From Gammaproteobacteria bacterium (lineage in GTDB: Bacteria > Pseudomonadota > Gammaproteobacteria > SZUA-229), in contig JAOULX010000011.1 of the NCBI GenBank assembly GCA_029881795.1, forward strand, positions 41,083 through 105,082: a stretch of DNA of 64,000 bases, given 5' to 3'. The translations under genes and the position numbers were made by a program. This document shows, piece by piece, positions 7,282-31,110 of this stretch; position 1 is the first letter of the stretch; each line of letters opens with the position of its first letter. The notes below the pieces were generated by a model, which saw only the letters and a list, made by a program, of their open reading frames with translations, did no database searches and was not told where the DNA came from.

Positions 7282-10104
7282 TTAACAAATCAGGTCTTCA
7301 ATAGTCTTTAGTAATGTCGAGTTTTTTACAGGCTTTCTTAAAAAAGCACGTATACCTATTTCTTTGGCGCTCTTTTCATCGATGTGTTCGCTAAAGCCTG
7401 TACAGAGAATGATGGGTAGTTCGGGTCTGATAGATAATATTTCTTGTGACACTTCTTTGCCAGTAAGGTTGGGCATGGTCTGGTCGGTGATGACGGCATC
7501 AAAGTTGTTAGGTGATGCTTTAAAGGCAGCTAAAGCAAGTTGGCTGTTATCAAAGAGAGCAACCTCATAGTCTTTTGATGTAAATACGGCTTCAAGTAAA
7601 TTTAAAATATTTTTTTCATCGTCAATAATTAAAATACGTCTGTTGCCAGTATGTATTTTAGATTTATTTTCTGCTTGCTGAATTCCTGGGGTGTCAGTCG
7701 CCGCAGGTGCTGATGTAATTGGGATGAATAAACTGAAAATGGTTTGACCGGGTTCTGTTTTAACTTGTATGTGCCCGTCATGGTCATGTGTGATGCCGTG
7801 GACCATTGCCAGGCCCATGCCAGTTCCTTTGTTGACGTCTTTTGTGGTCATAAAGGGCTCAAAAATTCGACTGAAGTCCTGTTCTGGAATGCCAGTGCCC
7901 GTATCTTCAATTGAAAATTCTATATAGTCTCCACTGAACTTATGGTGGCAGGCATCGCATAACTGGTTATTAACCGGGAGGCGTTTTACGTTGATGATAA
8001 GATGCCCCTGTTGATTCATTGCATCTTTTGCGTTAATACAAAGGTTAACAAGGCATTGTTGCATCATGACGGCGTCAATTAGTATTGCTGGTAAGTCGCT
8101 TTCGATATTTGTTTCTAAGCTAATGCTTGTTGGGATCATGGGCCTCAACATGCTGACGAGTTCTTTTACAAAGTTATCAATATCGATAACAGCGGCGTCA
8201 CTTTTATTGATGCGAGAATAAGCCAGTAATTTTTGAATCAGGACGCGAGCATTTTCTCCAGAAGTACTGATTGTATTCAAATAGCTTAATAGCTCTTCGT
8301 CATTGAATTTTAGTTTGACTCTTTCTGATGCTAAATCAGTGAATCCGAGTACGCTGTTAAGCATGTTGTTGAAATCGTGAGCAATACCCCCGGTTAACTG
8401 GCCAATTGATTCCATTTTTTGTGCTTGTTGTAATTGGTTTAGCAGGTCTTTTTGGCGCTGTTCATGCTGTTTTTGTTTGCGCATGTCTCTGCCAGATCCC
8501 GCCAATCCGAGCAGGTTACCTTGCGCGTCTTGAATGCGGGCGCCGTTAAAGTAATAAGGGACGATACCATCAGTTGTTATTAAACCGGCTTCGACTTCTG
8601 CCTGACCGCTCTCTAAAGTGTTTTTAATGGCCAATGAAATGGCTTCATGGTCGTCTTTTGCGATCACGTCAAGTGCATGCAGGTTGCCAATTTGATCGGG
8701 TTGTTTACCGGTAACTCGGCTAAAGGTCTCGTTCCACCAGACAATATTGCCGTCAGTGTTTAGACGATACATTACATCGGGTACGGTCGATGTAACGGTT
8801 TCGTATTGTTTGACGACATTGGCCAGGTGTTTTTGTAATGTATGCTGTTCTGTTATGTCCCAAAAAAAACCCAGTACACCGATGAGTTGTTTGTTTTCAT
8901 CGTAAACGGGTGTTTTAACGGTGTTGATGTACCCTTTTTCACTGTTTTCATTTTGATATGTTTCGATAAAGGTAAGTGTTTCGCCTTTGTTGATGACTTC
9001 CTGATCGCCTTGTTGATAAAGTCTGGCGTTATGAGGAAACAGTTCGTTGTCACTCTTGCCGCTTATCTCATGACTGTCGAGTCCAATCTCGTCTGCAAAG
9101 CGTTGATTGCAGGAAATATAGACTGAATTAGTGTCTTTCAAAAATATACTTTCAGGCAGGTTCTCAATCAGTGTTCTGTATTTGTGTTCATTTTTTTCGA
9201 GCGCAAGATTCGCTTTGCGCATACTTCTGGTATAGCCCCAAAGTCCTAGTGAAATAGCAATGAGTAATGCTGTCAGAACAGCAATGCCGGTAATCAGAAA
9301 TACTTCATTCTTTGTGAATCCGGATAAGACGCGTTTACCAAACCACTTGTCATATATGAGTTGATATTTGCCGTTTTTTTTAATTTTTTCGATGCCGGTA
9401 TTTAACTGTTTTAATAAAGTTATGTTGCCTTTTTTTACTGTCATTGACCAGCTGAGTTTTCGCAATGGGTCACCAGTGACTTTTATGTTTCTTTCCAGAT
9501 GTAGTTTTTGCGCTAAAAACAGAATGATTTGCTCGGGATAAATAAATGCATCGGCATGACCATTAATTAGCGCAATTAAGCCTTCTGCAGGCGTGTTTAC
9601 TAAGTAGCAGTCAATTTCTTTAAATTTTTTCAGGTAAATGTGAGTTATGTGGCGATTTACACAAGCTACTTTTAGTCCTGATAAATCACTGATGGAGTGA
9701 ATATTGTATTGTTGGTCACGAACAAAAATGGATTCCGGCATTTCAATAATGGGCTGCGAAAAATCCATTGTTTTAGTCCGCTCAATTGTGTAGCCGGTAT
9801 CGTGAATCAGGTCTGCTTTACCTGAATCTAGCCAGCTGAGTACAGTAGGCCAGCTGCTGCTATGAATATGTGTGGCAGTGATACCCATTTCAAGCATAAC
9901 CGCATCTGCTATTTCAGAAGCAAAGCCTGTTAGCTCACCCTGATCGTTTAGTAGATTGATAGGTGGAAAGTTATTTGATGAGGCAATCACCACTACCGCT
10001 TTGGGAGCCGATGTTATGGTCTTTATGTTTTCCTCAGCCAGAACAGGTGAGAGAAAAATAAGAGTAAGGCAAATAGAGCGCAAACTTTTTTGAGAAAGCG
10101 TCAT
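7282..10104 (-). CDS. Hybrid sensor histidine kinase / response regulator with periplasmic solute-binding (Venus-flytrap, SBP_bac_3-like) sensor, TM, 2 PAS, HisKA, HATPase and C-terminal REC
   Basis: 940 aa with signal peptide. The periplasmic region resembles amino-acid-binding proteins. The histidine box HDFNNMLNSVLGF, G-boxes and a C-terminal receiver (RILIIDDEKNILNLL...) are present. Confidence 0.8.
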   Translation of the reverse strand: MTLSQKSLRSICLTLIFLSPVLAEENIKTITSAPKAVVVIASSNNFPPINLLNDQGELTGFASEIADAVMLEMGITATHIHSSSWPTVLSWLDSGKADLIHDTGYTIERTKTMDFSQPIIEMPESIFVRDQQYNIHSISDLSGLKVACVNRHITHIYLKKFKEIDCYLVNTPAEGLIALINGHADAFIYPEQIILFLAQKLHLERNIKVTGDPLRKLSWSMTVKKGNITLLKQLNTGIEKIKKNGKYQLIYDKWFGKRVLSGFTKNEVFLITGIAVLTALLIAISLGLWGYTRSMRKANLALEKNEHKYRTLIENLPESIFLKDTNSVYISCNQRFADEIGLDSHEISGKSDNELFPHNARLYQQGDQEVINKGETLTFIETYQNENSEKGYINTVKTPVYDENKQLIGVLGFFWDITEQHTLQKHLANVVKQYETVTSTVPDVMYRLNTDGNIVWWNETFSRVTGKQPDQIGNLHALDVIAKDDHEAISLAIKNTLESGQAEVEAGLITTDGIVPYYFNGARIQDAQGNLLGLAGSGRDMRKQKQHEQRQKDLLNQLQQAQKMESIGQLTGGIAHDFNNMLNSVLGFTDLASERVKLKFNDEELLSYLNTISTSGENARVLIQKLLAYSRINKSDAAVIDIDNFVKELVSMLRPMIPTSISLETNIESDLPAILIDAVMMQQCLVNLCINAKDAMNQQGHLIINVKRLPVNNQLCDACHHKFSGDYIEFSIEDTGTGIPEQDFSRIFEPFMTTKDVNKGTGMGLAMVHGITHDHDGHIQVKTEPGQTIFSLFIPITSAPAATDTPGIQQAENKSKIHTGNRRILIIDDEKNILNLLEAVFTSKDYEVALFDNSQLALAAFKASPNNFDAVITDQTMPNLTGKEVSQEILSIRPELPIILCTGFSEHIDEKSAKEIGIRAFLRKPVKNSTLLKTIEDLIC

Positions 10105-10631
10105 TTAACTAATGCAACCTGAAGATAATTTGAATGAGCATCCATTTGTTTGTATCAAATTAGTGTGGGACCTGAATATGTTACGTTATGTAATCAGTAT
10201 AGCATCGGAATATATGTTTATAATGAATTGGCAGGAGTTATAACGAATTATTGTTGTGGTTATTGTCGTTTAAGAAAATGATAGTAAAAAATTGAAGTGA
10301 TCTTGCAAAAATCGTCAAAATCAACAGTAATAGTCCATTGAGTGGTTTGCAGTAATTATTGATAAGTATATTATTATTTGATTCTTTATTGAATTAATGG
10401 GTTCGATAGTTTGTAGGCAGTCGATTGACTGCAAGCATGCAGTGGTTTGTTGTGATTTAAAACATAAGTTTTAACAAAGCCGTCATCACACGTGCCCTGT
10501 TTTTCTAACCAGTGTACTGTATGTTGCCGACTAATACGAGAGAGCCGGATATAAGTAATGTAGAGGCTGCTACCGCACCTGAGAACCCTAGGCAAATGGC
10601 GGTTCCCCTAATGTCTCCGCCTGAGCAGTAT

Positions 10632-10772
10632 TCAGGTCCCCCCGATTAATTTAATCTCGACTTCTTTAGTTATTAAGCGGTATCCCTGCTCATCGGGTTT
10701 ATCAACGGGCTTGGATACAAAAGACAGCTCGAAAGTAAAAAAAATAATGCTAGCGGCAGATATTGTTTTCAT
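10632..10772 (-). CDS. Possible small (46 aa) ORF with strong Shine-Dalgarno sequence, N-terminal hydrophobic segment
   Basis: GGGAGGA SD 6 nt upstream of ATG; MKTISAASIIFFTFELSFVSKPVDKPDEQGYRLITKEVEIKLIGGT. Below ORF-track size cutoff; no homology recognised. Confidence 0.2.
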   Translation of the reverse strand: MKTISAASIIFFTFELSFVSKPVDKPDEQGYRLITKEVEIKLIGGT

Positions 10773-10819
10773 TGTCCTCCCTAAATAGAGTTTTTTATAT
10801 TTGTAAAAGGGCTTTGAGC

Positions 10820-11446
10820 TCAGGTTTTTTTCTCGCCGATTTTTTCTTCTGCGCCTGATGTCAGCTTTTGAATATTGCTTCGGTGTCTCCAGAATAACAT
10901 TAGCGTTAAAATGGCTGACATGATAATTAATGGTTGAGCCTCATTGATCTTCCAGATTAAAAAAGGCGCACAGAATGAAGCGATAAGAGCAGACAGGTAT
11001 GATGTTCTGAAGGTGGCGGCGGTGAATAACCAGATGCCAATCACGCTTAAACCGATGCGTCAATCCAGTGCAAGATAAACACCGAGTGCGGTTGCGACAC
11101 CTTTACCGCCTTTGAATTTTAAAAACACCGGGTATAAGTGGCCGATAAAGGCAGCAAATGCAACCAGAGCCAGCACGTTATAATCAACAGCCAAATAGAT
11201 GGCGATTAATACCGGTAACACGCCCTTGAACATGTCGCCAATTAAGGTGATGATAGCGGCTTTTTTACCGGCGTTGCGTAATACATTGGTAGCACCGGGA
11301 TTTTTCGAGCCACTAAGGCGCGGGTCTTCAAGGCCCATTAATTTACAGGTAATCACGGCGCTCGATACCGAACCAATGAGATAAGCTGCAACGATCAGTG
11401 CCCAGCTTTTGGGGTCGTTAATACCTAATGCAATAAAAGAGTCCAT
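10820..11446 (-). pseudogene. Diverged duplicate of plsY (G3P acyltransferase) with in-frame TGG->TGA nonsense codon at 11060-11062
   Basis: N-terminal 128 aa are about 97% identical to intact PlsY (14492-15118). TGA replaces the Trp codon (ALDW->ALD*), and the remainder continues in frame (RIGLSV...) with about 80% identity. Nucleotide identity to the intact copy is about 88-90%. Confidence 0.75.
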
Positions 11447-12134
11447 GAAAAACCTTAAATCTGAAAATAATCACGCTAGCATACACCAGGAACGTCAAAA
11501 GGTGCAGTGTGTGTTTGTGCATGGCTGGGGTATGAACAGTGCGGTCTGGGATTCATTGATTAACAAGTTGCCAGATTATTTTGAGCCTGTTTGCATTGAT
11601 TTTCCCGGGCATGGCCAGTTCAACCAACTCGGCTTTGAAAGCTTACAAAATCTGGTTGATCATTTGCTGCAACAGTCGGCTAGTACTCTGTCAGGCCCGG
11701 CCATCTGGGTAGGCTGGTCACTGGGCGCGTTATCGGTATTAGAGTTCAGTTTCAGTGGGCTGAAAACCTTCGCCTTAAATACCATGCAAAAATCTGATGG
11801 CAGTGAGCAGTCAAAAGCCGATATCGCGCTGGCCTTTGAAGAGGCTGTGGTCGATACCTTAATGATTAAATCACGCCGCGCAATCCGTGAGACCGGTATA
11901 AAAACGCTGGTGATAGCTGGCGGAGTGGGAGCCAATCAGCGCTTGCGTCGTGAGTTATCGTCCATGGCAGAAAAAGAAGGTGGCCAGTTGTATTATCCAC
12001 GGGTTGAATTTTGCACCGACAATGGCGCGATGATCGCCTATGCCGGTTGCCTGCGATTGCAGGCAGGACAAACCGAAGATATAAAAATAAATGTTCGGGC
12101 ACGCTGGCCGATGGAGGAGTTGGTGAGCTTGTAG
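11445..12134 (+). pseudogene. Chimeric ORF: N-terminal about 100 aa of a BioH paralog fused in frame to the last 131 aa of TsaD
   Basis: Residues to ...[12 protein letters not shown] resemble BioH (about 80% to 15117-15944). From EFSFSGLKT... the sequence equals the TsaD C-terminus. Nucleotides 11785-12131 are essentially identical to 5967-6306. The junction sits at GTTAG microhomology. Confidence 0.75.
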
Positions 12135-12563
12135 ATTTTAATTTTAAAATCAAATGAATGGATAAGCAGCAGCGAGTGATCCTGCTCTGCTAGTTATATA
12201 GTAAGTTATGATTATCTGATTTGGCTATATAGAACTTTGTAGGTAATCTAAGCGGATGGCGAGGCTGTTTTATTACAGCCAAAAACGTACCCTAAAAGGC
12301 TGTGTTAACATTCTTTACCCTGACGGCTGGCGCTTTTGTATGAGCATTCCTGTTCAAGAAACCTAATTTGTCATCCATCACGAATCAATCCCTTTGGAAC
12401 AGTGCGCGGTAAACTGTGAAAAAGGAAGGTGAATCAAAACCGATATAAACTAATTTTTTTTGACGAGAGATTTTTATTTATAGATTGGTTCTTTCTACTT
12501 TTCGAGGTCGATGGAATATAATCGTCATCAGATTTATCCTACAGTCTTTATGGAAATCTCTGA

Positions 12564-13484
12564 TTGATGTTAAAGCCTTGTTTGGCGAATAATGAAAGAC
12601 ATAAAAACATTTATAAATTTCAAGGGATTATGAAAAAAATTTTGTTATTTGTGCTTGTCACGCTTTCGGTTACGGTCCAGGCCGATCCTTTTAATATCTA
12701 CCTGCCTTTTAATACTCAATATGCACCCGGTGTCATGGATCAAATGGAAATGGCATTAGTTCTAGGTGTTGGTAATACGCGTAAAAATTTCCAGCTGCAA
12801 GTTGCACCACAAACCGATGACGAAAAATATATAGTACTCGAAACTGAAACTGATGAGTTTCTGGATGTTTCGTTCGGGTTTTCAGTGGGGCTGGGTTATG
12901 GCTTTGAATTTGAATTAAATGCAGGTGGCAGTGGTGTTACGTCTTTAAAGTATGATTTTGATAACGCTCATTCAAATTGGAAAAATTCAGTTGTTATTGG
13001 TGGGTTAAGATCGATAAGTAGAGGTCATGGTGGTGCGTTTATCCCACAGCCAGAACAAAGCTGTAGTTTTTTTGATATTTTTTGCTTCATGGATTTATCT
13101 GAGGTGTTGGGTTTTTTATGTTTTAGTTGTTCAGAACCGGGTAGTTACGAATATGTTTATCAGGCAGATATAAAAGGCAGCACGTTTGCGTATATGCAAG
13201 GCTATCAATATTCCGCATTGGTCATGCCGTATTGGGGTGTTTATTATGTAGGCTATGATATTGATCTTAAAGTAACGGATAATACGGGGGCTGATAATCA
13301 TCAATTTAAGGAAGTTGCAACCGATCTGATGGCGTTGGTGTTAGGGACGAAATGGCGACTGGGAAAGAAAGACAATAACTTTAATAAATCGATGATATTA
13401 AATTATCTGGCCTATAAAGACAGTTCGCTCCACGATGGCGAGTTTAACACCGAGATAAAAATGTCATTTTCAATGATGTTTTAA
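12564..13484 (+). CDS. Hypothetical secreted protein, probable outer-membrane beta-barrel (C-terminal ...MSFSMMF), likely start at 12630 (MKKILLFVLVTLSVTVQA signal peptide)
   Basis: Signal peptide, alternating aromatic/hydrophobic pattern, terminal Phe; AT-rich relative to neighbours. Confidence 0.5.
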   Translation: MMLKPCLANNERHKNIYKFQGIMKKILLFVLVTLSVTVQADPFNIYLPFNTQYAPGVMDQMEMALVLGVGNTRKNFQLQVAPQTDDEKYIVLETETDEFLDVSFGFSVGLGYGFEFELNAGGSGVTSLKYDFDNAHSNWKNSVVIGGLRSISRGHGGAFIPQPEQSCSFFDIFCFMDLSEVLGFLCFSCSEPGSYEYVYQADIKGSTFAYMQGYQYSALVMPYWGVYYVGYDIDLKVTDNTGADNHQFKEVATDLMALVLGTKWRLGKKDNNFNKSMILNYLAYKDSSLHDGEFNTEIKMSFSMMF

Positions 13485-13642
13485 TAAAATAATAGGCTTT
13501 TCTGGCAGGTAATGCCTGTAAATAAAAACACACAGAGATATTTTATATTGATAATGTCTGGTTCGAACTGTGTTACATTTGGCAGTACCAAAGCCAATGC
13601 TAGATTGTAGTCTAGCGGGCATGCAAAAACAGGAACGTAAAG

Positions 13643-14041
13643 ATGAGTAAGTTAAAAGAATCGGGGTATAGAGCTCTGGTTGTGGTTGAAGAGATTGGTT
13701 TGCTAATTATTGCGATAGCAACTGTCATTGCAATTGGTTTTGAAGTTGTGCAAATGTTTGAGGCGAAGAAAGTAACGCTTGCTGATCTTTTGTTGTTATT
13801 TATATTTCTTGAAGTATTAGCTATGGTAGGAATATATCTTAAAACGGGAAAGCTGCCTGTCCGTGTCCCGCTTTATATTGCCGTGGTGGCAATAGCCCGT
13901 TATATGATTCTTGACATGAAGAATCTCGATACACTGAGGGTGCTTGGTCTCGCTGGTACTGTTTTAATTCTTACTTTATCTATACTGGCTATTAGATATG
14001 GTCACACTAAATTCCCCTATAAAGAGACAAAAGACAACTAG
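13643..14041 (+). CDS. psiE: PsiE-family (phosphate-starvation-inducible) inner membrane protein
   Basis: 132 aa, 4 TM; LLLLFIFLEVLAMV...IAVVAIARYMILD conserved PsiE motifs. Confidence 0.65.
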   Translation: MSKLKESGYRALVVVEEIGLLIIAIATVIAIGFEVVQMFEAKKVTLADLLLLFIFLEVLAMVGIYLKTGKLPVRVPLYIAVVAIARYMILDMKNLDTLRVLGLAGTVLILTLSILAIRYGHTKFPYKETKDN

Positions 14042-14491
14042 TTAGTTCTTTAAAAAGTCGCTAAAACGGGTCGCTCTTTTTGGCTTGATTGTAATAAGGA
14101 CTGGGGTCATAGGAAGGATGCACCGAAACTATTGCAATAATACTTTTAATAATAGGCTTGGAAGTTTTTGGATTTTCCTGATTCGAGCAGTTTGCCGGGT
14201 TTTCAAATAGCGATCTTAATACGGCTTTCTGAAAGCTGTTATTGTATTTTTTTAGCTATTACTAGCCAGTGAATGCTGCTGCTCGGTTTACTCCTTAGCA
14301 TGACGGGGTGTCTTTTCTAATGCCGAGTTTCATTTGCTTTATTATCAGGTTATACCTTGTCTGATTATTTCTCTGGTCAGTTTTCTGGTTTGTGAAAGTT
14401 TAGAAATAACTTCGCAGTTAGCTAAACAAGTAACGCTACAAAAATGGGTAGGTTATTTAATCTATCCCTGTGTTATAAAACTATTAATAAC

Positions 14492-15118
14492 TTAAGAATT
14501 CTTTTTGCCAATTCTTTCTTCAGCGCCTGATATTAAATTCTGAATATTACTGCGGTGTCTCCAGAATAACATTAGCGTTAAAACCGCAGACATAATAATT
14601 AAAGGCTGGTTGCTGCTGATTTGCCAGATTAAAAAAGGTGCACAGAATGAAGCGATAAGAGCAGACAGTGATGATGTTCTGAAGATGGCGGCGGTTAATA
14701 ACCAGATGACAATCACGGCTAAACCGATGCGCCAGTCCAGCGCCAGATAAACACCGAGTGCAGTGGCAACGCCTTTACCGCCTTTGAATTTCAAAAACAC
14801 CGGGTATAGGTGGCCGATAAAGGCAGCAAAGGCTACCAGTGCCAGTACGTTATAATCAACGCCTAAATAAATCGCGACCAGTACCGGCAGTACGCCCTTG
14901 AACATGTCGCCTATTAAGGTGATGATAGCGGCTTTTTTACCGGCGTTGCGTAAGACGTTGGTGGCGCCGGGGTTTTTCGAGCCGCTAAGGCGCGGGTCTT
15001 CAAGGCCCATTAATTTACAGGTAATGACTGCGCTCGATATAGAGCCAATGAGATAAGCCGCGACGATCAGTCCCCAGCTTTTGGGGTCGTTAATACCTAA
15101 TGCTATAAAAGAGTCCAT
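14492..15118 (-). CDS. plsY: Glycerol-3-phosphate acyltransferase PlsY (intact copy)
   Basis: Start at [15 protein letters not shown]... by comparison with the paralog and PlsY family. [28 protein letters not shown] is a conserved motif. The ORF-track N-terminal extension to 15250 is spurious. Confidence 0.85.
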   Translation of the reverse strand: MDSFIALGINDPKSWGLIVAAYLIGSISSAVITCKLMGLEDPRLSGSKNPGATNVLRNAGKKAAIITLIGDMFKGVLPVLVAIYLGVDYNVLALVAFAAFIGHLYPVFLKFKGGKGVATALGVYLALDWRIGLAVIVIWLLTAAIFRTSSLSALIASFCAPFLIWQISSNQPLIIMSAVLTLMLFWRHRSNIQNLISGAEERIGKKNS

Positions 15119-15944
15119 GAAAAACCTTACATCTGAAAATAATCCCGCTAGCATACACCATGATGAGACGCAGGGGCAGTATGCCAAAGTACAATGTGTC
15201 TTTGTGCATGGTTGGGGAATGAACAGTGCGGTGTGGGACTCTTTTATCAATCAGTTACCGGATTTTATTGAGCCGCTTTGCATTGATTTGCCTGGCCATG
15301 GCCAGTTCAACCAGCTGGGCTTTGAAAGCTTACAGGATCTGGTTGATCATTTGCTGCTGCACGCTGACAAGCGCCTGACAGGCCCAGCGATCTGGGTTGG
15401 CTGGTCGCTGGGGGCGTTGCCGGTGTTAGCGCTGGCGCGGCAACAGCCTGAAAAAGTCAGGGCACTTTGTTTGCTGGCCAGTAACCCCTGTTTTGTGGTC
15501 AGAGCCGACTGGCAAGCGGCGGTTGAAGAATCGGTGTTTGACTTGTTTGCTGATAACCTGCAGCAAAACATAGAGAAAACATTGCAGCGCTTTTTAAGCC
15601 TTCAGGTTCGAGGTATGGCAGAGTCTCGCGATGTGTTGCGTTTGTTACGGGCGGCGATTGTGGGACAGGGTTTGCCCTCTTCGGCAGCTTTGGCAAGCGG
15701 CTTGGCTGTTTTAAAATCGACTGATTTGCGAGCAACGCTGGGTGCGCTGGCGGTGCCACAGTATTGGTTGCTGGGTGAGCATGACAGCCTGGTGCCGGCA
15801 GCCTTAAATGATTATTTAGGTGTTCAAGCAGGTGTCAAATCACATATCATAGATGGCGCGGCACATCTGCCTTTTGTTTCTCACCCCGAAGACGTTATGC
15901 AACAACTACTCTCAATTATCGATGTAAACCGTATCCATGATTAA
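15117..15944 (+). CDS. bioH: Pimeloyl-ACP methyl ester carboxylesterase (alpha/beta hydrolase)
   Basis: [13 protein letters not shown]...[11 protein letters not shown]...LLASNPCF match E. coli BioH and it is followed by bioC. Start uncertain: ATG 15117 overlaps the plsY start as CATG; ORF-track start 15081 overlaps plsY by 38 nt. Confidence 0.8.
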   Translation: MKNLTSENNPASIHHDETQGQYAKVQCVFVHGWGMNSAVWDSFINQLPDFIEPLCIDLPGHGQFNQLGFESLQDLVDHLLLHADKRLTGPAIWVGWSLGALPVLALARQQPEKVRALCLLASNPCFVVRADWQAAVEESVFDLFADNLQQNIEKTLQRFLSLQVRGMAESRDVLRLLRAAIVGQGLPSSAALASGLAVLKSTDLRATLGALAVPQYWLLGEHDSLVPAALNDYLGVQAGVKSHIIDGAAHLPFVSHPEDVMQQLLSIIDVNRIHD

Positions 15945-16743
15945 ACCTGGCAGTGTGATTAATAAAAAATGGATACGACGTGCGTTTGATAAAGCGGCCG
16001 TAACCTATGACGATGCCGCTGTGTTGCAGCGTGAAGTTTGTACTCGCATGCTGGAACACCTTGATGCGGTGAAAATGGTGCCTGAAACGGTATTGGATAT
16101 TGGTGCAGGTACTGGCTTCGGGGTCGGTCTGTTAATGAAGCGTTATAAAAAGGCGCATATTACCGCAGTTGATCTGGCTCCCGGCATGCTGAAGCGGGTG
16201 GCCAGGCAGGGCAGTTGGTTACGTAAGCCGACATTGATATGCGCCGATGCCGATCATTTACCGATTGCTGATAACAGTGTGGATATGATTATATCGAGCC
16301 TGATGTTGCAATGGAGTGGCGATTTAGAGCGCACTTTTCGTGAGTTTCGGCGAGTACTAAAGCCCGGTGGTGTGCTCATGTTTGCAAGCTTTGGTCCGGA
16401 TACGTTAATGGAATTGCGCAGTAGCTGGGCGCAGGTCGATGGCGACGGCCATGTTAATCAGTTTATGGATATGCATGATGTGGGTGATGCTCTGCTGCGC
16501 AGTCAGTTCGCTGACCCGGTCATGGACCGGGAGATGCTGACATTAACCTATCAAAAAGTCACCGATCTGATGCGAGATTTAAAAGCGATTGGTGCTAATA
16601 CCCCTTCCAGTGGGCGTCGCCGTGGTTTGATGACGGCCGCTACCCTGTCTGCTGTTGAGCAGGCCTATGAGCGTTATCGACGCGATGGCGTGTTACCGGC
16701 CAGTTATGAAATTGTCTATGGCCAGGCCTGGCTGGCGGAATAG
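15937..16743 (+). CDS. bioC: Malonyl-ACP O-methyltransferase
   Basis: 268 aa; SAM-binding VLDIGAGTGFG motif; WIRRAFDKAAVTYDDAAVLQREV N-terminus typical of BioC; overlaps bioH stop (operon). Confidence 0.8.
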   Translation: MIKPGSVINKKWIRRAFDKAAVTYDDAAVLQREVCTRMLEHLDAVKMVPETVLDIGAGTGFGVGLLMKRYKKAHITAVDLAPGMLKRVARQGSWLRKPTLICADADHLPIADNSVDMIISSLMLQWSGDLERTFREFRRVLKPGGVLMFASFGPDTLMELRSSWAQVDGDGHVNQFMDMHDVGDALLRSQFADPVMDREMLTLTYQKVTDLMRDLKAIGANTPSSGRRRGLMTAATLSAVEQAYERYRRDGVLPASYEIVYGQAWLAE

Positions 16744-30439: not shown

Positions 30440-31110
30440 CATTGCCGGTAGTCGCACCGGCGAGCGAGGCATTTTTTCCTACAGCTGAAAAAGTACCGTA
30501 CTTGCGTGTGTAGGTGACACGTTAATTAATAGCGCGATAGCGCGCATACTATCTAATGAAAGCCGCCCTAACCCAGTTTGCCCTGCGGGTTCCCATGCCT
30601 TGTAAATACAGTCACTATCAAACTATGTACTGTAATAGTGATAGCCTCTCTAACGGGTCATTTTCATTCGCATCCCTCGGTAACCGCTCCTGCGTTACTC
30701 TACCTCCTGCATCCATGCAGTCGTGCTCAAGAAAACTTAATCTGCCGTCCATGGCAGATTATCCCTTTCTAGAAACAATGCATGGCAAACTGCGAGACGG
30801 GAGCAATAATTAAAAACAGATAGTAACTACTAGATTTTAGTCCTTTTTATTTTCTTTTGAATTCGACTTTGACTCACCGCTCCCCATTTAAGCAAGCCGA
30901 GGAAGGCGTAATATGGACGGGGCTTTCTGCGAGGATGTTTGAGTGAATGGTGTTTTTTATCATTCACGAGTTCCGCAGCAGCCGTCGATATTTCGACTGA
31001 CGAGGGAACCCTTATGCTTTTTATAAGGGATTGGTTAACGGGGCGGCTTTCTTTTCGTTAGTTTTCTGTAGCTGTAGACAGAAAAGTGACCTGCTGTCGG
31101 TCAGCCACCG
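30440..31110. repeat. Copy B of the ORF-less hairpin-rich mosaic repeat element, inserted between ftsE and ftsY
   Basis: X module is reverse-complemented at 30672-30730 (CTGCATCCATGCAG). Y module is direct at 30832-30985, and W module direct at 30960-31095. It has TIR-like ends GAAAGCCGCCC (30558-30568) / GGGCGGCTTTC (31042-31052). Hairpin CCCTTAT-GCTTTTT-ATAAGGG at 31010-31030 is a compensatory variant of the copy A hairpin. Confidence 0.55.

Follow-up and report, generated by a model that had tools for sequence, protein, structure and literature searches.

The tsaD-bioH region of the analysed DNA, here called the window (one stretch of 64,000 nucleotides), contains an extra plsY, an extra 5'-part of bioH and an extra 3'-end of tsaD, the latter two fused in frame, and these duplicated pieces with their fusion are a real recombination scar of an ordinary kind. 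The arrangement appears to be two alternative haplotypes of one locus standing in tandem, since window positions 7270-11744 are collinear with L165, which is the closest sampled species, and since the two tsaD ends have contexts that occur in different relatives: the left tsaD is followed by a non-coding region 'A', as in L003, L091 and L092, and the right tsaD fragment by hyp306, the gene that comes after tsaD in L086, L090 and L093. With slightly better than even confidence, we regard the locus as a partial merodiploid, i.e. as DNA of a close lineage ('D') residing in genome 'R'. The features are as follows, in window coordinates.

5287-6309, forward strand: resident full-length tsaD (NCBIfam TIGR03723 TsaD, 443.7 bits, cut-off 296.1; rpsU/yqeY/hemE synteny as in the relatives)
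5915-6309, forward strand: left copy of the direct repeat, the last 395 nt of resident tsaD
5956-6307, forward strand: 352-nt tract of the left copy, 100% identical to 11781-12132 (position-by-position comparison at offset 5825, and alignment)
6310-7281, no strand: non-coding region 'A' on the 3' side of tsaD, with orthologous DNA following tsaD in L003, L091, L092 and L002
7282-10104, reverse strand: intact hybrid sensor histidine kinase (Pfam SBP_bac_3, PAS, HisKA, HATPase, REC)
10440-10772, reverse strand: what is left of a small gene of 127 aa, now decayed (33% identity and two in-frame stops in tblastn with the L165 protein, E=2e-11)
10820-11446, reverse strand: plsY' pseudogene, full length but for a single nonsense change (codon 129, TGA at 11060-11062), from comparison with resident plsY and orthologues
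11445-11738, forward strand: bioH', the 5'-terminal 98 codons of a diverged bioH (covering positions 5-80 of the 245 in the BioH profile)
11739-11744, forward strand: illegitimate joint with in-frame fusion (copy compared with the resident genes and with 10 bioH and 6 tsaD orthologues)
11740-12134, forward strand: 'tsaD, comprising the final 131 codons of the gene and forming the right-hand repeat copy (covering positions 204-313 of the 314 in the TsaD profile)
12135-14491, forward strand: right-hand islet of spacer y, hyp306 (12567-13484), a psiE-like gene (13643-14041) and spacer z
14492-15118, reverse strand: resident plsY, intact counterpart of plsY' (NCBIfam PlsY 209.7, cut-off 137.2)
15117-15944, forward strand: resident full-length bioH, intact counterpart of bioH' (NCBIfam BioH 215.3, cut-off 206.95)

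The blastn alignment of the window against itself identified 5915-6309 and 11740-12134 as direct repeats of the tsaD 3'-end, 5,825 bp apart, which enclose 'A', the hybrid histidine kinase, the decayed small gene, plsY' (TGG>TGA) and the bioH'::'tsaD fusion. The kinase is the sole intact gene within this 5.8-kb unit, and its product shares 84% identity with the orthologue of L165 across 940 aa (dN 0.089, dS 0.59). Searches for remnants of the kinase in spacer z, and of hyp306 in 'A', returned none.

Duplication of the plsY/bioH start region, first noted in the sequence-only reading, was confirmed by blastn, in which 10827-11742 aligned with 14499-15429 at 84.7% identity over 934 columns with 6 gaps. 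The resident block accordingly extends to 15429 and not to 15410 as first given, and the earlier estimate of ca. 88% nucleotide identity applies to the central 300 nt only. The homology ends at the plsY stop codon, and the start of bioH' overlaps that of plsY' in the same way as in the resident pair. At the protein level, 188 of 208 residues (90%) are identical between PlsY' and PlsY, and 77 of 98 (79%) between BioH' and BioH. Chance or a low-complexity repeat is ruled out as the source of the duplication (blastn E=0). The TGG to TGA change reported in plsY' is genuine: codon 129 is TGA against TGG in the resident gene, Trp is found in 11/11 orthologues, and the 128-aa product is called likewise in an independent k141 assembly.

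The sequences at the joint are GGTATTAGAGTTC in the copy, GGTGTTAGCGCT in resident bioH and GGGTTTAGAGTTC in resident tsaD. A microhomology is present, as had been proposed; the exact GTTAG that both parents were said to share is not, and TTAG alone is common to all three. Because most bioH orthologues read CCGGTnTTAGAGCT at the joint site (L091 reads CCGGTATTAGAGCT), the true parental microhomology is probably TTAGAG at 11739-11744. An independent k141 contig (L081), which matches window 6167-11878 at 100% identity, contains the joint in its interior, and the DNA flanking the joint is of the diverged type on both sides. The fusion ORF reaches 67.5 of the required 206.95 bits for BioH and 123.9 of the required 296.1 bits for TsaD, both as partial profiles, and on this domain content it is predicted to be non-functional, in line with the earlier opinion. 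All the extra PlsY, BioH and TsaD copies fall short of a functional family, the fusion being below the NCBIfam cut-offs and plsY' having an in-frame TGA.

The description of the right-hand tsaD piece was likewise accurate: 11740-12134 matches 5915-6309 with four early differences followed by 352 identical bases (11781-12132 = 5956-6307). The differences, at 11759, 11768, 11771 and 11780, are all synonymous third positions (4/4), giving a diverged stretch of 41 nt (11740-11780) with 4 synonymous differences in 15 codons and an identical remainder. Junction-proximal error-prone synthesis is an unlikely source of the four differences, as all of them are in synonymous third positions (ca. 0.2^4 by chance). 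The two tsaD copies end in different stop codons (TAG vs TGA), and their downstream flanks are unrelated. The 352-nt tract is bordered on the left by diverged sequence (4 of 41 nt), and its right edge is the stop codon, where the homology itself ends. Sliding identity of tsaD against the relatives was 65-85%, too distant for typing of the tract.

In the related loci, the tsaD, plsY and bioH genes were single-copy without exception (15/15), in the order tsaD - islet - plsY/bioH, and the core order of the clade is tsaD> [variable islet] <plsY bioH>. The fusion of the bioH 5'-part to the tsaD 3'-part is therefore the exact head-to-tail joint of that segment. The native order in L165 is kinase - p127 - plsY - bioH (full) - bioC, where p127 is the 127-aa small gene between plsY and the kinase; DNA homologues of the small gene were located downstream of plsY in L084, L089 and L165. 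The hyp306 orthologue is the next gene after tsaD in the relatives, and stands just before the kinase in L165.

Divergence of the extra bioH fragment took place under purifying selection, as in a working gene. Between bioH' and the resident copy dN was 0.12 and dS 0.82 (omega 0.15), within the range of orthologue pairs (0.08-0.30). On the bioH' branch, 14 non-synonymous and 18 synonymous changes were counted where neutrality predicts 78% non-synonymous (P=2e-5), and this ratio is no different from that on the resident bioH branch (9:14). For plsY' against resident plsY, dN was 0.053 and dS 0.52 (dN/dS 0.10), with non-synonymous to synonymous changes of 17:26 on the plsY' branch and 8:25 on the resident branch.

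In neighbour-joining trees, bioH' clustered with L165, the resident copy being apart, in 90% of bootstrap replicates; BioH' and L165 also have in common a short N-terminus and the motif LLQQSxSxLSGP. For plsY', codons 1-128 clustered with L165 (70%) and codons 130 to the end with the resident copy (83%), while over the whole gene the resident copy was the nearest (86.9% nucleotide identity, NJ 91%). The L165 signal, from ca. 285 to 384 sites, is mosaic. Sliding identity against the relatives across the right flank (bioH-bioC) showed no jump that would mark an import boundary, and L165 was the closest throughout (80-86%).

Two histories had been put forward for the block, i.e. an old segmental duplication with recent conversion in tsaD, or a related-strain fragment acquired by homology-facilitated illegitimate recombination. 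The signature of purifying selection, seen in bioH' and in the four synonymous changes of the tsaD piece, and the grouping of bioH' and of the 5' two-thirds of plsY' with L165 favour DNA from a related lineage and speak less for a simple old duplication. Plain homology-facilitated illegitimate recombination as the route for such DNA is a misfit, and because both sides of the joint are diverged, a single crossover of a self-closed fragment, or a duplication joint carried over from the donor, would fit better. As to the 352 identical nucleotides, neither history suffices alone: each also requires that the tract was converted later or was identical beforehand.

The course of events that we would on balance favour is a sister-lineage fragment closed at TTAG(AG), a single crossover in tsaD, and later gene conversion of 352 nt. 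The arrangement in D would have been tsaD - A - kinase - small gene - plsY - bioH, and that in R tsaD - hyp306 - psiE - plsY - bioH. A D fragment reaching from tsaD codon ~210 to bioH codon ~98 may have had its ends joined at the microhomology TTAG(AG), whether through circularisation or because the donor already carried a tandem-duplication joint there, with bioH'::'tsaD as the by-product. One homologous crossover in the tsaD 3'-end would then have integrated the fragment, leaving a 5,825-bp unit between two direct tsaD 3'-copies. An intact sensor kinase would have been gained with the unit, and the plsY made redundant would since have acquired its nonsense codon and additional amino-acid replacements. 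Later gene conversion between the tsaD ends may have wiped out the differences over 352 nt, so that only the 41 nt by the joint (11740-11780) would remain D-type.

Some observations count against this scenario. Among them are the position of plsY' nearest to the resident copy over its full length and the small, mosaic set of sites behind the L165 signal. The conversion is an extra event, and its tract extends as far as the stop codon, beyond which there is no homology, a difficulty in view of the need for homologous flanks. The presence of the kinase only on the left and of hyp306 only on the right is also expected from reciprocal loss after an in-place duplication. The long-range order rests on the assembler's resolution of a 352-bp exact repeat, at which the k141 assembly breaks. 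Searches for the donor or for an empty site by genome scan, metagenome scan and protein search with PlsY' returned nothing above 91%; the donor-lineage genome was not found, and the best PlsY' matches among 5.8 billion proteins were at 90%, a value that does not exceed that of the resident copy. In exact look-ups, the 229-aa fusion, HemE and the 337-aa TsaD had no record, and the PsiE look-up returned the same neighbourhood only, with no contig carrying the exact PsiE in different surroundings.

An old tandem duplication in place is a possible, though distinctly less probable, explanation. The ancestor would have had the order tsaD - A - hyp306 - kinase - p127 - plsY - bioH, as in L165, and a segment from tsaD codon ~210 to bioH codon ~98 would have been repeated head to tail at TTAG(AG), or a larger whole-gene unit would have been trimmed by deletion. 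Reciprocal losses would have followed, with hyp306 kept on the right only and the kinase on the left only, plsY' decaying, and the tsaD ends recently converted. The geometry of the joint is exactly that of a tandem-duplication join point, bioH 5' to tsaD 3', with tsaD upstream on the same strand in the relatives, and each duplicated gene now has at most one intact copy. Synonymous divergence is also similar across the pieces (plsY dS 0.52, bioH' dS 0.82, tsaD 4 synonymous differences in 15 codons), and resident plsY is the nearest relative of plsY' over the whole gene, with the 3' third grouping the two in 83% of bootstraps. However, dead fragments should evolve neutrally, with ~50 non-synonymous changes expected per 18 synonymous, and only 14 were seen; nor is there a frameshift or stop across the 98 bioH' codons. 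The bioH' fragment clusters with L165 (90%) instead of the resident copy, i.e. the copies are not mutual closest relatives. The divergence between the copies equals that from L165 (dS ~0.5-0.8 vs 0.59), so an in-place duplication would be as old as that split, and yet none of the 15 related loci has it. If whole genes had been duplicated at the outset, two working copies each of tsaD, plsY and bioH would have been kept up for long in a recombination-unstable arrangement.

One-step homology-facilitated illegitimate recombination (HFIR), in which homology in tsaD, or in bioH/bioC, would anchor a linear foreign fragment whose other end joins recipient DNA at the microhomology, is unlikely. It would account for foreign-type DNA with one homologous side and one microhomology joint, and displaced gene ends of a similar kind, at T6SS and Rhs loci, have been suggested to arise in this way (PMC5361080). 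Recipient DNA would be expected past the joint, however, and there the 41 nt of 11740-11780 carry four synonymous differences from resident tsaD; anchoring in tsaD predicts identity near the joint and divergence toward the 3'-end, the reverse of what is observed. An assembly or population artefact, with the 352-bp repeat misresolved, a chromosome that runs from tsaD to hyp306, and the unit being a circle, an amplified array or part of a co-occurring strain, is improbable. In its favour, the source is a metagenome-assembled genome (118-kb contig), and the k141 assembly of that population is interrupted within the repeat on either side (L081 = 6167-11878, L163 from 11992), so that the assembly graph permits both resolutions. 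Against it, the joint and the four diverged bases are well inside L081, a k-mer overlap is impossible with 4 to 6 bp in common, and the mosaic is real under either resolution of the repeat; the unit has no replication, integrase or transposase gene, and no contig places the exact PsiE in another neighbourhood. A mobile element was ruled out, as the unit is without transposase or integrase, terminal inverted repeats or a tRNA gene, its gene content being limited to the kinase, plsY', the fusion and small ORFs, and the flanking repeat is a 395-bp gene end. It is very doubtful that the 5.8-kb unit is a reversible cassette, excised or amplified by RecA-dependent recombination of the tsaD ends, with the kinase dose being switched or tuned within the population as a result; in that case the identity of the repeats would be upheld by recurrent recombination, with no single past conversion.

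Join points of microhomology-mediated tandem duplications are known in bacteria (reviews of Reams & Roth). They resemble the present locus in the head-to-tail joint on the same strand, the 4-6-bp microhomology and the in-frame hybrid ORF, and differ from it in that here the copies are ~15% different and contain other internal genes, and the extra copy is under the mark of purifying selection and has a foreign placement in the trees. Ectopic gene conversion between dispersed repeats is also familiar, e.g. in tufA/tufB and in rRNA operons, and likewise leaves a few hundred identical bases within diverged sequence; unlike in those cases, one partner here is a non-functional fragment, and the tract ends at the stop codon together with the homology.

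Under the sister-lineage reading, the closest experimental parallel is Campbell-type integration, as in E. coli conjugation experiments in which a single crossover of a re-closed molecule produced 109-950-bp duplications of the anchor (PMC3240628). Heterologous DNA there too lies between direct repeats of part of the anchor gene (395 bp in our case), with one illegitimate joint made before integration, and the product is reversible by recombination of the repeats. The donor in those experiments was a plasmid, whereas here it would be chromosomal sister-lineage DNA, ~15% diverged; moreover, we infer the event from sequence, and the repeat has since been mostly homogenised. In HFIR, as outlined for de Vries & Wackernagel 2002, Prudhomme et al. 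2002 and Meier & Wackernagel 2003 where they are cited in PMC5361080, foreign DNA is similarly captured by homology on one side and a short microhomology joint (TTAG here) on the other. In contrast to that outline, both joint sides here are of donor type, and the anchor is duplicated with no recipient deletion. Displaced 'orphan' 3' gene ends, with immunity genes, were described at T6SS, Rhs and CDI loci by Kirchberger et al. 2017 (PMC5361080). Those loci also have a conserved gene as the anchor, the older end of which is pushed downstream and kept as a fragment, and copies within a genome that are not mutual closest relatives; the present locus differs by involving the housekeeping genes tsaD, plsY and bioH in a single event, with no array and no toxin/immunity logic.

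The locus would be a clear instance in nature of an event of known type, the capture of a relative's ~15% diverged DNA beside housekeeping genes, for which a single crossover within a conserved gene plus a joint at one microhomology may be enough; it opens no new biological question. What is left over is a dead copy of one gene, a hybrid ORF and a direct repeat prone to recombination. In annotation, plsY' and the fusion should be flagged as pseudogenes, and for assembly quality control the locus is a case in which the contig order is decided by a 352-bp exact repeat. The tsaD-plsY interval itself is a variable islet in this uncultured gammaproteobacterial clade.

No Rfam family was found in the spacers at gathering scores, the only matches being spurious miRNA hairpins (E<=1). 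Region 'A' contains a dispersed repeat element with a structured consensus fold (6458-6612) and, at 6765-6884, a long hairpin, and a second copy of 'A' sequence is located at window positions 30667-31110.

Comparison of the window with itself returned only two large repeats. The first (10827-11742 against 14499-15429, 84.7% identity, 6 gaps) covers plsY and the first ~98 bioH codons, with homology ending at the plsY stop codon, and the second (11739-12139 against 5914-6313, 98.75%) is the tsaD 3′-end. Both repeat pairs, a TGA codon, the joint and the tsaD piece were all recovered in the sequence, and the mosaic block of the sequence-only reading, a diverged plsY-bioH 5′ paralog joined to a duplicated tsaD 3′-end, is thus real. 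In the following, plsY′, bioH′ and ′tsaD denote the extra pieces.

Features of the locus (window coordinates, strand, feature)
3268-4335, −, hemE
4439-4888, −, yqeY
4910-5197, −, rpsU
5287-6309, +, resident tsaD (NCBIfam TsaD, above curated cut-off)
6310-7281, non-coding stretch "A"
7282-10104, −, 940-aa hybrid sensor histidine kinase
10820-11446, −, plsY′
11445-12134, +, ORF fusing BioH N-terminus to TsaD C-terminus
12135-12563, spacer y
12567-13484, +, hyp306
13643-14041, +, psiE-like gene
14492-15118, −, resident plsY (NCBIfam PlsY, above curated cut-off)
15117-15944, +, resident bioH (NCBIfam BioH, above curated cut-off)
15937-16743, +, bioC (NCBIfam BioC, above curated cut-off)
from 17080 onward, +, ccoNOQP

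PlsY′ and PlsY are identical at 188 of 208 positions. The nonsense codon reported for plsY′ was confirmed as TGA at Trp-129, a Trp in resident PlsY and in all 11 orthologues. A microhomology exists at the joint, but of the GTTAG earlier assigned to both parents, the copy and the two resident genes share just TTAG. Since CCGGTnTTAGAGCT occurs at this site in most bioH orthologues, and one related locus (L091) is the same as the copy there, the true microhomology is probably TTAGAG (11739-11744), which lies in the same codon phase in bioH and tsaD and would account for the fusion being in frame. Relative to the resident gene, the tsaD piece has differences at 11759, 11768, 11771 and 11780, all synonymous third positions, followed by 352 nt of complete identity (11781-12132 = 5956-6307); beyond this, the stop codons differ (TAG vs TGA), as does all downstream sequence.

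The tsaD ends form a pair of direct repeats spaced 5,825 bp apart; from left to right they enclose "A", the kinase, a small gene in decay, plsY′ and bioH′. The small gene (10440-10772, −) has two in-frame stops and 33% identity to a 127-aa protein (p127) of L165, the closest sampled species; p127 is a putative lipoprotein, intact in L165, and its DNA remnants were also located 3′ of plsY in L084 and L089. No transposase, integrase, inverted repeats or tRNA gene were found in the 5,825-bp unit.

Searches with PlsY′ led to an uncultured clade of Gammaproteobacteria sampled in estuarine or mat metagenomes. All 15 related loci (75–86% DNA identity) are single-copy in the order hemE - yqeY - rpsU - tsaD> islet <plsY bioH> bioC> ccoN, the islet varying in content with "A"-like sequence and/or hyp306. 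Given this order, the bioH5′::tsaD3′ fusion is an exact head-to-tail joint of the tsaD to bioH segment. L165, reached via the best kinase homologue (P0122, 84%), is ordered hyp306> <kinase <p127 <plsY bioH(full)> bioC> and is collinear, at 82–84%, with window 7270-11744. In the window, plsY′ keeps p127 and the kinase downstream, and the tsaD fragment keeps hyp306, so each half of the locus retains half of an L165-like ancestral context; after the left tsaD comes "A", an arrangement also seen in L003, L091 and L092.

Purifying selection is evident in plsY′ against plsY (dN 0.053, dS 0.52, ratio 0.10) and in bioH′ against bioH (0.12, 0.82, 0.15; orthologue pairs over the same codons 0.08–0.30). 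When 9 to 11 outgroups were used to polarise changes, 14 non-synonymous and 18 synonymous ones fell on the bioH′ branch (resident 9 and 14; neutral expectation 78% non-synonymous, P = 2e-5), and 17:26 on the plsY′ branch (resident 8:25). These ratios and counts indicate that, through most of its divergence, the extra copy functioned as plsY-bioH and was no truncated fragment, and the four synonymous differences of the tsaD piece indicate the same for the DNA across the joint. There are signs of late relaxation of constraint: about six of the bioH′ substitutions hit sites that do not vary among the nine bioH outgroups, and in plsY′ S150Y and Q166K (invariant in 11/11) and L141F and N194K (conserved in 10/11) all follow the TGA. 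In neighbour-joining bootstraps, bioH′ grouped with L165 (90%), as did plsY′ codons 1-128 (70%), whereas codons 130-end (83%) and whole plsY′ (91%) grouped with the resident copy; along the block, the informative sites form a mosaic. BioH′ and L165 BioH have a short N-terminus and an LLQQSxSxLSGP stretch in common, in which resident BioH differs. Copy, resident genes and L165 are about equidistant (dS 0.5–0.8 between copies, 0.59 for the kinase pair).

On balance, we lean towards a merger in which two sister lineages each contributed one haplotype of a variable locus, by crossover of an end-joined donor fragment in tsaD. The fragment would have extended from tsaD codon ~210 to bioH codon ~98, its ends joined at TTAG(AG), and integrated via one crossover in the tsaD 3′-end, duplicating that end. 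The majority outcome of an E. coli experiment seeking homology-facilitated illegitimate recombination (HFIR) was this same product class, with anchor duplications of 109–950 bp (PMC3240628). The structure is a recombination product whose kind is known, in a new place. The earlier interpretation is supported in part: of its two histories, foreign-lineage DNA is favoured by the selection signature and the L165 grouping; classical one-step HFIR is improbable, as recipient sequence, expected from the joint onward, is not seen.

In the main rival reading, an L165-like locus underwent an old tandem duplication in place and then reciprocal losses. This neatly accounts for the complementary gene content but is rather unlikely, being contradicted by the signature of selection on bioH′, by its clustering with L165 and by the lack of the duplication in every relative, though its age would equal the split from L165. 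If whole genes were duplicated first and the joint formed later by deletion, the selection test is escaped, at the cost of maintaining three redundant housekeeping genes for long. Least probable is wrong repeat resolution in the assembly, which would change the order and leave the joint real. Contig L081 of k141, an independent assembly of the same population, is 100% identical to window 6167-11878 with the joint well inside, and with only 4 to 6 bp in common there the joint cannot be assembler-made. The k141 assembly breaks on either side within the 352-bp repeat (both ends of L081 fall there, L163 begins at 11992), so the long-range order depends on how the repeat was resolved in the 118-kb source contig; the other path through the graph would place hyp306 immediately after tsaD and leave a 5.8-kb circle, just as excision from the given structure would.

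The 352-nt identity requires either later conversion between the two tsaD ends or a crossover site that was identical in donor and recipient beforehand. The excess of ~14 non-synonymous changes on the extra copy's branches roughly estimates ~2% neutral decay since redundancy began, predicting ~7 differences per 352 nt against none observed; this one rough argument favours later conversion.

The fusion retains the start region of bioH, where conservation within the block is highest (92%), and is therefore probably expressed. Lacking two thirds of each parent domain, the product should be inert, in agreement with the non-functionality proposed earlier. The plsY′ is a pseudogene. Only the kinase, which is intact and evolves under purifying selection, plausibly accounts for the unit's retention.

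The tsaD-plsY interval (window 6310-14491; L003, L086, L090-L093, L165) is a variable islet of 0.9 to 3.7 kb with species-specific content. Its genes in the window are low in G+C (kinase 0.41, hyp306 0.375, psiE 0.38; core genes 0.46–0.51), and the psiE-like gene beside resident plsY was absent from all relatives compared. The fast-evolving hyp306, whose N-terminus resembles a signal peptide and which matches no family, is conserved just 3′ of tsaD clade-wide (38–69% aa identity vs 85–94% for PlsY and 85–91% for TsaD).

Several species carry, 3′ of tsaD, a structured non-coding element of ~150 nt, which occurs twice in the window.

Copies of the structured element
window 6458-6612, +
window 30972-31110, −, in a 0.9-kb intergenic gap
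relatives: L003 5696-5847; L091 9881-10018; L092 ~9988-10084

No Rfam family was found for the element, which is conserved at 87–89%, above neighbouring genes, with an RNAalifold consensus of five hairpins and 38 pairs, seven with compensatory double changes. A long near-perfect hairpin in "A" (6765-6884) gave just spurious plant-miRNA precursor matches in Rfam, well under gathering scores. Upstream of hemE, a very large repeat-rich surface-type protein (9-3089, +; at least 1026 aa, cut by the window start) is encoded, and a 38-bp palindrome (3186-3223) lies between the two genes.
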